Assembly (NCBI GenBank): GCA_951406725.2
Contig: OX597825.1
Coordinates: 16,120,001-16,184,000 of the forward strand
Source: Octopus vulgaris
Taxonomy: Eukaryota
Direction: 5' to 3'
DNA length: 64,000 bases
Made by a program: the position numbers and the translations under genes. Shown one piece after another: positions 2,880 to 53,296 of this stretch (position 1 is its first letter; every line of letters begins with the position of its first letter). The notes under the pieces were generated by a model. That model saw only the letters and a program-made list of their open reading frames with translations, had not been told where the DNA came from and did not search any database.

Positions 2880-2937
2880 AACCTCTGATGAGAAACAAGA
2901 TCCTATTGATGAAGTTTCGAAATCACGTGATAAGGTT
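2880..2937 (+). ncRNA. Type I hammerhead ribozyme, intact core
   Basis: Stem I aacct(2880-84)/aggtt(2933-37); CTGATGA 2885-91; stem II GAAAC/GTTTC; GAAA 2919-22; palindromic stem III TCACGTGA; cleavage triplet AUA (cut after 2932). Confidence 0.85.
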
Positions 2938-3852
2938 CTATCAAACTGCTTCATTCTGTGAGTTTATCTCACCACAGAAAGATACTGTGGCTTGCTGCTT
3001 GCTTCCCAAATGTTTCATGAGGTTAGTTTTAATTGCATTGATTTTATTATTATTATCTATTTGAAAATATAGCCACGAATCGTTGGTGCTATTTTGCACC
3101 CTCCTTTATTAATGTTACCTTTTTGGTTTTAATTGCTATAGACACCTATAGTATAACGTATTTAATATAACTTAACATATTAATATATTAATATAATATC
3201 TTATTGTATGCTACTACATATGTGATATAATTTTTTTTTTTATTGATGGCTGTAATAGAGTCATTTTTCTCTATAATTATATACACATACATACATACAT
3301 ACATTTATATATATTTTCCTAAAATTTGTCGTATATGCATCTTGCAATATATATATCAATATATATATATATATATATATATATATATATATATAGGTAT
3401 GTATGTATGTATATGTATATGTATATACACACATATATATATATAATATATATATATACATACATATGTGTACAATAAGCATCCCTGTTCACAGCATGTA
3501 AAAGCACCTAGTACACATCTGTAATAGTGTTTCAACACACGAACTCATATAAAGAATCCAGCTGCAGAAACCATGCCAAAACAGATGATATAGCATTAAT
3601 TGAAGTGGAGCCCTATTGTCAGCCCCTGTCAAGCTGTCGATATTACCAATCAGTTTTGCGAGCATGAAAGCAATTGGTAAAATCAGCCAAAATGGATGTA
3701 TAATACTGTACACATCAATTAATATACCCACTCTATTGACAAATATACAAGTACATTTTTTCTGACTTATGGTCTCTTAGACAACTTTCACACACACACA
3801 CACACACATAGCTGTAATTGTTTTCTCAAATAAAATTGCACTTCATTTTTGA

Positions 3853-3933
3853 AGCTCTGATGAAGGTATAAGGTGATACACAAGCACTCAACTATGAGTG
3901 TATTGCACCTTATTTCAGAAACAGCTGTAGGCT
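3853..3933 (+). ncRNA. Type I hammerhead ribozyme, minimal stem III
   Basis: Stem I agct/ggct; CTGATGA 3857-63; extended stem II (ataaggtg/caccttat, cactca/tgagtg); GAAA 3918-21; palindrome CAGCTG; GUA cleavage triplet. Confidence 0.75.
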
Positions 3934-6317
3934 AATAAAGTTCATTCTGTCATTTCTTGTTCCTTGTTCATTTATATAATCTCTTATTACACTCTGTTCT
4001 TGACCAGTGTTTTTCTCTGAAACATATGTATATTGAATTCTAACAGCAGGTTATTAGAATCAATATACCTAAGCATCATCATCATCATCATCATCATTTA
4101 ACGTCCATTTTCCATGCTGGCATGGGTTGGATGGTTTGACTGGGGTCTGGGCAGCCAGGAGGCTGCACCAGGCTTCAGTCTGATCTGGCAGTGTTTCTAC
4201 AGCTGGATGCCCTTCCTAACGCCAACCACTCCGAGAGTGTAGTGGGTGCTTTTTTTTGCATGCCACGAGCACAGGAGCCAGAGGGGGTTGGTGTCGACTC
4301 TGATTGGATGGTGCTTTCTACGTGCCACCGGCACAGGAACCAGTCGAAGTGGCGCTGACATCAGCCATGTTTGGATGGTGCTATATATATATATATATAT
4401 ACATGTATATAAAGTTAGATATGGCTAGTTTATCGAAACCGCGATCCTACGACCACGAGTCCGGTGTATCATCAGATCCCAAAACTGGGCCATTGTGCCT
4501 CCACAATGACATATATATGATATACGACGGGCTTCTTTCAGTTTCCGTCTACCAAATCCACTCACAAGGCTTTGGTCGGCCCGAGGCTATAGTAGAAGAT
4601 ACTTGCCCAAGGTTCCACACAGTGGGACTGAACCTGGAACCATGTTGTTGATAAGCAAGCTACTTACCACACAGCCACTCCTATGTCTATGGGTTATGAT
4701 GAAATAAATATTGGCAGTCATATCCTTATATTTTGTCTTACTGTGGAATTTGTCTCCATAAGAGCCTTTTTTTGTGGGTTGCTTTAAATGAGGTTTGAAC
4801 CAACCCTCTTCATTATTATATAGTATGTTGTTGAGATTTGCATACATGTCTTACCTTAGATACCAAGTAGAAAAAAAAAACCTTCCCAAGATTCCAAGTA
4901 ATAATAATGAAATATTCCTTAATTTATTGGTTAAGTTGGCATCTTAACATCTCAACCAGTTGCAGATCTCAGCAAAACACCGTAAAAGACTAGCGAATTC
5001 TCATGTTGTGCAGAAATATGAAAACTTCTGAACAAAATGCAAATTGCCCTCCAGGGCAGCAGATCAAACAGAAGAAATCTTTTATTATGCAAGGGAAGAA
5101 ATATTTCAAGATAAGAAAGAAATATCTCTTTGTAGAATGAAAAGAAAACAGGAGCTTTAGAAAAATATCTTTTAATCATCCTTTCAAGGCAAGAATTGCT
5201 CCAGGGGATTGTCTTAACTCTGAGCAAATCTTATTAAAATTCCACCGAGTTCCTGTACCTCCGTTCTTTCTTTTGATAGTAGTTCTAATAGGATTAGCTG
5301 TCATATAGACATAATATATATGCATATATACATATATGTATATATATGTGTGTGTGTGTATATATATATATATATATATATATATATATATATATTTATA
5401 TATATATATATATATACATATACATATATATATATATATATATATATACATATATATATATATATACACACACACACACATATATATATATATACACACA
5501 TATATATATATACATATATATATACACACACATATATATATACATATATATATACACATATATATATCTACATATATATACACACACATATATACATATA
5601 CATATAGATATATATGTGTGTGTGTATATACGTATACATACATACACATATATACAAACATGCATACACACATGCACACACACACACATACATAATAGAT
5701 GTCTACATACATCACTTCTTTGCATACATATTTACCTCTGTGTGTAGGTGTGATATAAAAATACATTATGTCCATATATATATATGATGATGATGATGAT
5801 GATATTGGTTTCAAATTTTAGCTCAAGGCCGGCAATTTCAGGGGAGGGGGATAGTTAATTACATGAGCCCTAATGTTCAACTGATTCTTATTTGAGTGGG
5901 ATGGGCTATTCAACCAGAAGAAAATTCTAACTGGGCCCCACCTGCAAGGTCATGTGCTGTTTATCTTGACATGAGATCACCATGTCATGCACATATGGTT
6001 GTGATGCATGTGCCTGGTGTACCCTTATCAGACGTGTAGTCATGATGGGTATACTGGGGTTCGTATATTTTACCCCAGTGTCACTTTGATGACATGCACT
6101 GCTCTCTCACTCAATAATGATAATAGTAATGATGATGAAATTATTGTGTATAGTGCTCAGGTGCACTACAACTCATCAAAGCCCCTTGTGGGTAGTAAAG
6201 AAATAGGTATTTCGTCTGCTGTTACGTTCTGAGTTCAAATTCCGCCGAGGTCGACTTTGCCTTTCATCCTTTTGGGGGTCCATAAATTAAGTACCAGTTA
6301 CGCACTGGGGTCAATGT

Positions 6318-6492
6318 TAGTTAGTTAAATTTTTTGGCTCAAAAAGCAAAAAGCAAGGCCATGTAGGGGGACATGGAGTTATGTACAGGGTGGTGTTTAT
6401 GTAAAGAGTTCAGGCCACTTGAGGTCAAGGGAGACTTTGAACCGAGCGGTCGTCGGCATCTTCACCATCTTGTCTGGCAGCTTATTCCACGG
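6318..6492 (-). mobile_element. CR1-like LINE 3' end inserted in a SINE
   Basis: PWNKLPDKMVKMPTTARFKVSLDLKW...* terminal motif, short 3' UTR, (TAAC)n tail; splits the Meta-type SINE at 6180-6570. Confidence 0.7.
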
Positions 6493-51513: not shown

Positions 51514-51756
51514 ATATATATATATATATATATATATATATATATATATATATATATATATATATATATATATATATATATATATATATATATATATATA
51601 TATATATATATATATATATATATATATATATATATATATATATATATATATATATATATATATATATATATATATATATATATATATATATATATATATA
51701 TATATATATATATATATATATATATATATATATATATATATATATATATATATATA
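51514..51756. repeat. Long perfect (TA)n microsatellite
   Basis: About 240 bp of uninterrupted TA; another long tract at 44400-44549. Confidence 0.97.
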
Positions 51757-52438
51757 AATATAGCTGAGGAAAGTAGATGTACATTATGTAGCAAAAACAA
51801 AAAAATATGTAGCAAGTTTCTGGTAGTTGCACTGATCTGGTTCCATTTTCAGTTTGATAAATGTAACAAAAGGAAAAAAAAAAAAATATATAATAATAAT
51901 AATAATAAAGGAAAACGTGGGAGGAAAAAAAAAAATTTTAAGAAGTGAAAAAAAATCAGAGCACCAGTTTTGGTGGAATCGTATATCTTATTGAAGCACT
52001 GTCATAGTAGCTACATCATTTAAAAAAATAATCCTATTATTTCCCATTTTACCATTGTTACAGTGCCTGGTGGCATTCCTTGATGTTGGTTATCCTAATG
52101 GATTTTTAATATTCTGTTCTACAGAATCGACACTCGTGCCTAGAGATATTAATGCCAAAGCATGCATCAAGCATGTTTTTAAAGCTTCCTTTTTGTGTTT
52201 CACTCTGACTGACTCTCACCTGGTAGTTACACCATTCTGAGCAATTTTTTTTTCTCTTGAATGTATTACAAATTACGAATAGGTAAGTTTGCTGCAATTA
52301 GCTGTAGAATTCACATAGCAACTACAATATACATACACATATATATATATATATATAAAGGGAAAGTTTACGAAAGACAAAGGCAGGTGGAGTACAAACA
52401 AACAAATGTATTAGTATAGCGCTCAGGAATAGAAAAAG

Positions 52439-52476
52439 TCTTTTACGTTTCGAGCCTACGCTCTTCGACAGAAAGA
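52439..52476 (-). ncRNA. Minimal hammerhead-like motif with a variant core
   Basis: Minus strand: tcttt CTGTCGAA GAGC-gtag-GCTC GAAA CG TA aaaga. Stems I and II pair perfectly, but the 5' core is 8 nt rather than CUGANGA. Related fragments at 27907-27922 (+) and ~28157-28195 (-). Confidence 0.5.
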
Positions 52477-52562
52477 TACACAGAAAAAAACAAGGAGAGA
52501 AAAAAAATGCATGTAGTAGCTAATGATCTATCATGGCATCCTGACATATATATACATCTAAT

Positions 52563-53296
52563 ATAGGATAAAATGTTTCAAAAAAAATTTTTATCAATGG
52601 CCGGCATATTAAAAAATACCTTCAAAGGTTAAATTTATAAACAACTTATAAACAAGGACAAAAGAAAAAAGTTCTAATGCCAAATATGCCGAAAATAGAC
52701 AAATTGTCAATAATCATATAATTTATCACTATTAACACGTGTCTTGAAGTAAACCGACAGAAATTTCTATTACCGCATTAGTCCCAATTTCAGAGTTAAT
52801 TCATAAGAATTTTCTCCTCATTAGCGATAAATACGTAAGACATAAATGAAATACTTACTCATACCTATGGAAGAAGACAGAAATTTCTGTCGGTTTACTT
52901 CGAGACACATGTTGATAGGGGTAAATTATATGGTTATTGACAATTTGTCTATTTTCGGCATATTTGGCATTACAATTTTGTTCTTTTGCCCTTGTTTTAT
53001 AAGTTATATATATATAAATAAGGATAAGATTGTTAATTTAAATTAAATAACGATCTTATCAAGTGGCCATCATGGAAATAAAAACCTTCAAAGGTAATAA
53101 TTATTATTAAAATTATAACTTGGGGTATCTACGAGATACCGCCATGCTGAAAATAGCAGTCAGGATCTGACTCTAAGACCACCTTAAGTGTTCATATAGC
53201 ACAAGGAGAAAAGACAAAATAAAACTAGGAGTAATTTTCTACTAGTTTTGTCTTCTTTCCTTGTGCTATATGAACACTTAATGTGATCTTAGAGTT
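52563..53296 (-). mobile_element. Two adjacent (TA)n-flanked fold-back elements, the first with a degenerate hammerhead
   Basis: Arms 52644-52768/52879-53005 and 53170-53228/53240-53295. Minus-strand ttatcg CTAATGA...GAAA ttgggactaa TG cggtaa at 52770-52830. Confidence 0.7.

Follow-up and report, generated by a model that had tools for sequence, protein, structure and literature searches.

Penelope-like elements (PLEs) are the closest described counterparts of a set of non-coding hammerhead ribozyme units from the genome of Octopus vulgaris, located in a stretch of 64,000 nucleotides (contig OX597825.1, positions 16,120,001 to 16,184,000 of the forward strand), here called the window and numbered from its first letter. 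The window has 35% G+C and is rich in (TA)n and other simple repeats. We consider it likely that the units, which lie at (TA)n runs, are dead, 5'-truncated 3' ends of PLEs, mostly of the Hydra type. Most likely the pattern is one already described and not a new kind of element, and the families themselves are likely new, with no parent linked to them.

According to the available text of Craig et al. 2021 (PMC8557442), Hydra-clade PLEs carry canonical ribozymes and target (TA)n, a preference shared by Naiads, while inverted truncated copies, tails of 30-40 bp and a microsatellite bias are typical of PLEs. Its File S1/S2 lists one octopus family, Hydra-1_Obim from Octopus bimaculoides, with its ribozyme tabulated; in File S2, stems III have 4 bp and loops of 0-3 nt, and the base of stem II is often U.U or U.C. 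The accessible part of Cervera and de la Pena 2014 (PMC4209133) provides the definition of the minimal motif and describes opposite-strand pairs 100-700 bp apart, single truncated copies and an extreme diversity of families. The protein of the PLE PAc is described by Frangieh et al. 2024 (PMC11167929) as cutting and extending both strands, with AT-rich DNA preferred and two start sites that define the tail; in vitro, ribozyme cleavage is protein-assisted and not needed for insertion. Both papers, in the portions available, leave open what the ribozyme does in PLE mobility (PMC8557442, PMC11167929). Retrozymes, described as tandem repeats of 150-450 bp (available text of PMC7229834), are reported to derive from the pseudo-long terminal repeats (pLTRs) of PLEs (bioRxiv 10.64898/2026.07.22.740005, as far as its text is available). 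In cephalopods, 235 hammerhead 1 matches are given for the giant squid genome (PMC6962438, in part), and the accessible text of Bonar et al. 2026 (PMC13282606) assigns 6.83% of the O. vulgaris genome to PLEs in 190 families and also reports miniature inverted-repeat transposable elements (MITEs) and Tc1-mariner elements; the words ribozyme and hammerhead do not occur in its main text as available. No paper devoted to the octopus families below was found in a search that left most subscription papers and repeat databases outside its reach.

Hammerhead motifs and their families

The scattered octopus hammerhead motifs are real. Six of them keep all 12 core letters (CUGANGA, GAAA and UH, in type I order), all at the places given in the first-pass annotation: counted from their first position they are 2880+, 3853+, 23596+, 24274-, 24499- and 24587+, with C3/H17 at 2885/2932+, 3857/3929+, 23602/23640+, 24328/24278-, 24554/24504- and 24592/24642+. 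By core and stems they belong to the type I hammerhead class and are predicted ribozymes. An exact-stem type I descriptor accepts four of the six (2885, 23602, 24328 and 24554), and 3857+ is added once a single stem mismatch is allowed, giving five with formable stems; 24592+, in which the base of stem II is broken, fails every descriptor. For the six isolated motifs the stem-forming fold is predicted to lie 3.0-9.5 kcal/mol above the free ensemble.

Comparison with shuffled sequence rules out a chance origin of the strong motifs. The exact-stem descriptor had no match in any of 20 dinucleotide block shuffles, and when one core change was allowed it gave 6 matches against a mean of 0.375 (8 shuffles). 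Five further settings gave 3-4 matches against shuffle means of 0.02-0.19, and in each of them the observed count was reached by none of 100 shuffles. In a scored scan, eight motifs reached at least 25 bits (24554-, 3857+, 2885+, 49132-, 24328-, 23602+, 52824- and 6764-), compared with a mean of 0.37 and a maximum of 2 in 30 shuffles, and 52471- fell just under the cut-off at 24.2 bits. The same scan of the reversed window, in which hairpins are kept and the core is lost, peaked at 22.4 bits. The control against dinucleotide-shuffled sequence that had been proposed with the first list is thus in favour of the strong motifs. At 12 bits or more there are 56 matches against 52.1 in shuffles, so weak hits are meaningless, and matches under about 20 bits, being at chance level, were left uncounted.

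The 3' half motif together with an exact upstream core box occurs 5 times versus 0.35 expected. The bare 3' half motif (42 against a mean of 21.3, maximum 35 of 100) was discarded as evidence, because about eight copies of one short interspersed element (SINE) family inflate the count. Several candidates were also put aside: 6764- (28.2 bits) overlaps what appears by eye to be a tRNA-type SINE head, and 24851+, 18390-, 30230+, 5179- and 36155- are near the null range or have no matching unit. No Rfam hammerhead model reached its gathering score among the matches listed (150 of 313); in two further searches the best was Hammerhead_3 at 22.2 bits against a gathering score of 48.5 (43 rows), and the other gave none in 30 rows. 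No locus turned up when metagenome and viral contigs were scanned with sequence patterns.

The degenerate and half motifs of the first list survive to different degrees. Motifs 49082-, 52770- and 52439- were recovered at 34.7, 28.0 and 24.2 bits, and 48490+ is borderline (21.5 bits). In contrast, 9093+, 32957- and 49756+ stand as 3' halves only, and 44273+ can be recognised only when its two arms are compared. Five motifs or halves were not on that list, i.e., 25105+, 28190-, 33055+, 46523- and 48842-.

The stems had been said to differ completely between families; 24274-, 24499- and 24587+ form a single family, here family A, so the six intact-core motifs come from four families. A pairwise comparison of 19 motif sites gives four strong groups, namely family A, 33055/32973, 49132/49727 and 52471/28190, with weak links among 24592, 25105, 48842 and 49132 and the other sites ungrouped. 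From this comparison we would put the number of families at roughly a dozen.

Most motifs have a stem III of 4 bp with a loop of 0-3 nt, the signature of the Hydra clade. By eye, family A, 23602, 3857, 44273, 33055, 49132, 9107 and 25105 match the stem III layout of File S2, a descriptive likeness that implies no exclusivity of this layout to the Hydra clade. The window motifs also share with the described Hydra PLEs cut sites of the UU, UA or UC kind, a base of stem II that often has a non-standard pair, the position of a type I ribozyme near the 3' end and (TA)n targets, and an inverted truncated copy is noted for Penelope-13_HM (available text of PMC8557442). In sequence, the window families are unlike the single Octopus family so far published. 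The first-pass view of these motifs as minimal type I hammerheads is not supported for most of them, the minimal type being confined to 52439- and a decayed copy of it near 28190-. Motif 52439- resembles the minimal hammerheads described for Penelope/Poseidon and Neptune PLEs in the accessible text in its unpaired base before stem II, the G10.1-C11.1 pair and the palindromic 15.2-16.2; however, these are only 2 of the 19 motif sites, and the core is damaged in both. By motif architecture, the motifs are most likely remnants of Hydra-like PLEs for the most part.

Fold-back units and the copies of family A

An arrangement of arm, loop, inverted arm and tail beside (TA)n had been proposed for most of the motifs. 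It holds for 10 of the 14 first-listed motifs, whose units contain an inverted arm, and does not for the other four, which are named below. Across the fold-backs the arms are 67-91% identical, and all 12 motifs or half motifs within fold-backs read outward. A tail of about 45-95 nt is usually present on one arm only. Nine of 13 cleavage sites lie at most 120 nt from a (TA)5+ run, compared with 21.7% of random positions. A U-rich outward strand was rejected as a common signature of the fold-backs (9 of 15 versus 6 of 15). The units total 4402 bp or 6.9% of the window, including a 410-bp SINE; set against the genome-wide PLE coverage of 6.83%, the population is not exceptional for an octopus, contrary to its earlier description as dense.

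Two intact motifs stand alone. The first (2880..2937, +, 36.9 bits) has a G10.1-C11.1 pair and a palindromic 5-bp stem III, is predicted to be cut after 2932, and a (TA)12 run ends 48 nt upstream of it. The second (3853..3933, +, 37.0 bits) has a long stem II with A.A at its base, a palindromic stem III and a predicted cut after 3929. At 9093..9118 (+) only a 3' half is left, consisting of stem II, GAAA, a palindromic stem III and UC, and the 5' core box is missing. The third intact motif outside family A (23596-23646, +, 31.9 bits) has U.U at the base of a 3-bp stem II and a predicted cut after 23640. Its unit (23569..23732, +) lies between two (TA)14 runs and consists of an inverted arm of about 21 nt, the motif and a tail of about 70 nt.

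Family A is represented by two neighbouring units. Unit 1 (23761..24367, -) has (TA)n at both ends and is interrupted at 23867-24274 by a SINE; its parts are the tail side (23762-23865), the motif (24274-24332, predicted cut after 24278) and an inverted piece of about 28 nt. Unit 2 (24392..24670) is a fold-back with arms 86% identical and motifs on both strands: the tail (24393-24458) and the motif 24499-24559 (-, predicted cut after 24504) reach a junction near 24572, which is followed by the inverted copy with motif 24587-24647 (+). Directly beside family A, at 24685-24740 (-), a CUGAUGA at 24715 is followed by a 4-bp stem II, with no GAAA box. The SINE in unit 1 belongs to a family of about 410 bp, whose copies at 23867-24274, 26418-26816, 26838-27241, 31305-31709 and 12838-13232 are 89-93% identical.

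Further units lie downstream. The fold-back at 25047..25157 (91%), absent from the first list, has a 3' half motif (25105-25116, +) opening its right arm, and 28070..28245 (-), adjoining (TA)23, is a decayed copy of the minimal-hammerhead family. At 32926..33169, a fold-back (75%) combines a 3' half motif (32961-32973, -) with a degenerate full motif with a long stem II (33055-33134, +). The fold-back at 44172..44400 (84%) lies between (TA)n runs, has a tail of about 55 nt at the right and carries one damaged motif in each arm (44273-44314, +, and its inverted copy). A weak degenerate motif at 46482..46523 (-), likewise new, has CUGAUGA and GAAA intact and U16.1 lost.

The imperfect fold-back at 48417..48670 (76%, +) encloses the degenerate motif from 48490 between its arms. 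It is followed by two fold-backs with tails: 48789..49040, with a 3' half motif at 48830-48842 (-), and 49053..49270, whose motif (49082-49132, -) has one core change and whose right arm carries the inverted 3' part. The region 48789-49267 is duplicated in tandem at 49398..49872 (84%), where motif 49677-49727 (-) keeps its 5' box, has a damaged stem III and is accompanied by a half motif near 49756 (+). At 52358..52545 (-), the minimal hammerhead (52439-52476) lies 88 nt from (TA)9; it has a 5-bp stem I, the unpaired base before a 4-bp stem II, GAAA-CG-UA, and A6 changed to U. Finally, the unit at 52556..53004 consists of a fold-back (52644-53004, 78%) with a tail, and in its central loop lies a degenerate motif (52770-52830, -) with two core changes and strong stems. 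By eye, 53016-53100 is a second, diverged copy of this tail.

Four other fold-backs (21666-21891, 29350-29501, 44579-44804 and 53170-53295) have arms 79-90% identical and no recognisable ribozyme; three of them lie near TA-rich runs, and they are probably members of the same class truncated before the motif. The inverted SINE pairs at 37341-37716, 39759-40410, 55255-56446 and 59757-60233 were kept out of the class. At 6852-7205, a segment of about 335 bp with CUGANGA boxes at 7034 and 7114 and several GAAA-like boxes lies between the two copies (6852 and 7187) of an 18-bp direct repeat. No complete hammerhead could be assembled from these boxes, and the segment is possibly a decayed insertion with a long target duplication.

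Part of family A is found in 20 of 24 listed public sequencing runs. In four runs from three organisms, 9133, 8048, 5419 and 1188 contigs align to 24392-24778; contig depth in this comparison is not copy number, and the contigs were chosen for likeness. Loose ends rich in (TA)n recur at 24393, 24414 and 24459 (among 24 of 776 rows listed), and these tiers are the core end plus the tail ends. Behind 24572 other copies run on with different sequence; because they continue past it, the copy in the window is truncated there. Inversion joints occur at many positions (among 15 of 59 listed), a scatter that fits separate events of truncation and inversion. No RNA run is listed among the 24 runs as a holder of family A, X15 being RNA only by guess.

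The variants within family A leave the core alone: none of the 40 variant rows listed (6 more are unlisted) hits a core letter. Frequent variants fall in loop III (24509), in loop II (24531 and 24534) and at existing mismatches (24522 and 24543), or preserve pairing (24499, 24525, 24528 and 24542), and the pair-breaking ones at 24536 and 24538 stay at 4-8%. Such a pattern would be supportive of a conserved ribozyme, and is not a proof of it.

Some details of family A stand apart. A single contig of run X6 joins back by 66 bases, from 24568 to 24503, beside the predicted cut site, and is possibly a head-to-tail ribozyme dimer. A loose-end line of low agreement (about 0.5) behind 24572 reads AACGGT on the element strand, which is likewise found just upstream of the ribozyme in Hydra-1_Obim and Penelope-15_HM, a weak likeness. 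The first end tier follows a T-rich AG (24455-24470, -) that resembles a splice acceptor; pyrimidines are abundant in several tails, and introns are known from PLEs.

Origin of the units

The features of PLE insertion are present in the units: a 5'-truncated copy with an adjacent inverted truncated copy, and a tail extension at one end only. To these are added two features of the Hydra clade, namely the (TA)n preference and the 4-bp stem III with a 0-3 nt loop near the 3' end. Separate 5'-truncated insertions fit since family A has tiered (TA)n ends and variable inversion junctions. The likeness to the PAc element extends to AT-rich targets and to 3' ends that lie in tiers beyond the ribozyme, downstream of it; unlike in the accessible description of PAc, tails in the window measure about 45-95 nt and not 30-40, and no start codon leads into an ORF (open reading frame) at the ribozyme. 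The proposal of a multi-family collection of PLE 3' ends of pLTR type, with inverted truncated copies and tails at (TA)n, is supported. It had also been noted that the window has no ORF for reverse transcriptase (RT) or GIY-YIG, and Pfam agrees, with neither in any of 268 stop-free, non-low-complexity frames of at least 50 aa, a search that would miss shorter or frameshifted relics.

We suggest that such units likely arose as follows, the two-strand priming and the two start sites being steps drawn by analogy from the in vitro work on PAc. A full-length element elsewhere, with an RT plus GIY-YIG ORF and a ribozyme near its 3' end, would be transcribed, and the endonuclease would nick both (TA)n strands. 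Reverse transcription would begin downstream of the ribozyme, with two or three sites to start from, and would leave a tail on one arm only. Both cDNAs would abort after about 20-200 nt, in or near the ribozyme, and would be joined head to head, or just one would be retained. Later the copies would decay, be invaded by SINEs and undergo tandem duplication. Where transcription reads through a unit, its own antisense arm would precede a paired motif and mask it. For either family A motif in the full fold-back, the cleavage-competent form is predicted to lie about 78 kcal/mol above the free ensemble, and with this penalty paired copies are predicted to be silent hairpins. The solitary intact motifs 2885+ and 23602+ might cleave weakly or as dimers.

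Several observations weigh against an origin as truncated Hydra-type PLEs. Four listed motifs (2880+, 3853+, 9093+ and 52439-) have no inverted arm. Although 14 of the 18 units outlined by hand reach to 12 nt or less from (TA)4+, compared with 8.5% for random segments, the outlines were drawn partly from the TA runs, which biases this test (the cut-site test less so), and 4 of the 18 have no (TA)4+ at either end. All 18 units end before any ORF, and for no family is an RT/GIY-YIG ORF linked within the window; the Hydra assignment is accordingly one of motif architecture, with no ORF to show RWK, DKT, CxCX5C and the absence of CCHH. Four window motifs from three families are absent from the published consensus file, where a match may be hidden by a line break. 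Compared by eye, family A is like Hydra-1_Obim in layout and unlike it in sequence. The tails exceed the published 30-40 bp. Covariation among the copies of family A is not above shuffles (335 of 500 shuffles), with three copies compared. Finally, the summed depth of family A on the two sides of the ribozyme differs by a drop of about 8-10-fold, and this would fit a short non-autonomous element as well.

It is conceivable, and rather unlikely in our view, that the families, family A above all, are such elements, i.e., non-LTR retrozymes or PLE-dependent SINE-like elements that are transcribed independently, cut by their ribozymes, perhaps circularised, and inserted by PLE enzymes in trans. The very large number of short copies, the steep fall in depth and the lack of any ORF fragment in the units agree with this, as does the reported derivation of retrozymes from PLE pLTRs; the units share with non-LTR retrozymes, as far as these are described in the available texts, their short length, lack of coding capacity, type I ribozyme, high copy number and relation to PLEs. 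Same-strand motifs lie 226 nt (24504/24278) and 595 nt (49677/49082) apart, from which a monomer would be excisable, and there is the one contig with a head-to-tail joint. However, retrozymes are described as tandem repeats, and none of 125 tandem repeat rows covers a motif. Arrays of at least two similar monomers with complete ribozymes are absent from the window, where only diverged pairs separated by (TA)n occur, with inverted arms and tails in place of homogeneous head-to-tail arrays. The two family A units, 82-88% alike, have (TA)12 between them and each its own inverted piece. Junctions vary between copies of the family, and other copies extend upstream of 24572. The retrozyme-like alternative in the first-pass annotation thus loses its defining trait.

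A related idea, which we find doubtful, is that family A is a very high-copy octopod Penelope derivative templated mostly by ribozyme-cleaved RNA, so that truncations pile up at the cut site. In run X1 the summed depth falls from 1.90M to 0.29M across 24495-24509, and the inverted arms of the 23602 and 48490 units have their ends almost exactly at stem I. Yet runs X4 and X6 show the fall at a later point, divergence of stem II between subfamilies can cause it, and truncation in the window occurs anywhere between about +17 and -60, counted from the cut. Early truncation, cleaved templates or stem II divergence could each account for the drop.

There is very little room for the idea that MITEs or foldback DNA transposons, duplicating a TA target, gave rise to the fold-backs and that the ribozymes are their passengers. 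The inverted arms have TA at their outer ends, and MITEs and Tc1-mariner elements are reported in this species, but the two arms differ in length and only one side has a tail, an outward-reading ribozyme is common to families that are unrelated, and four listed motifs lack an inverted arm altogether. The inner junctions vary between copies, and for family A this largely refutes the idea. Terminal inverted repeats that are fixed and symmetric, with a uniform length across copies, are seen neither in its arms and junctions nor, given the tails, in other units.

Host gene and significance of the units

The window contains a gene with a Jiraiya domain, with coding exons at 34441-34704, 38096-38182 and 42080-42304 (+) and alternative exons at 10284-10397 and 19953-20009. 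The three coding exons are 100% identical to a protein named for O. vulgaris and O. sinensis, and 97-100% identical to Argonauta. Residues 1-104 of the long isoform are absent from the window, and from this and the mapped alternative exons we infer that 1-34440 is mostly intron. That selection keeps the motifs as host regulatory ribozymes cutting this intron of the pre-mRNA is scarcely credible: 2885+, 3857+, 23602+ and 24592+ are on the gene strand, and the predicted folding penalty of isolated 2885+ and 23602+ is small (4.4 and 3.0 kcal/mol), but intact cores lie on both strands of the putative intron (4 sense and 2 antisense), most copies are decayed and one is interrupted by a SINE, a masking penalty of about 78 kcal/mol is predicted for paired copies, and family A is a genome-wide repeat.

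The C-terminus of the O. bimaculoides protein model P0007 (residues 223-256) maps to 48436-48546 (+), in the 48490 unit, with 89% identity over 19 aa; the overlap is an old shared insertion, either an exonised remnant or a gene-model artefact. Beside an (AAT)n array, a 144-aa frame (15316-15847, +) has no Pfam hit, and the motif at its end recalls what we take to be the C-terminus of restriction-enzyme-like non-LTR elements such as Dong/R4. Other repeats are a 14/28-bp minisatellite (33583-34152) and 2-copy tandem repeats of 184 and 174 bp (54408-54782 and 55312-55662).

Since the architecture was known, the units are a useful annotation and not a surprise. Ribozyme-bearing debris, most likely of PLEs, makes up about 7% of the window and would account for a visible share of octopus non-coding DNA; its families, roughly a dozen, are apparently outside the one Octopus Hydra consensus that is published. 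Because short copies exist in thousands and their ends can be mapped, they would permit a direct genomic test of whether cleaved RNA serves as a template. If it does, octopus genomes would carry a large load of intronic hairpins, and would preserve, like fossils, the traces of hammerhead cleavage that took place in vivo as PLEs retrotransposed.

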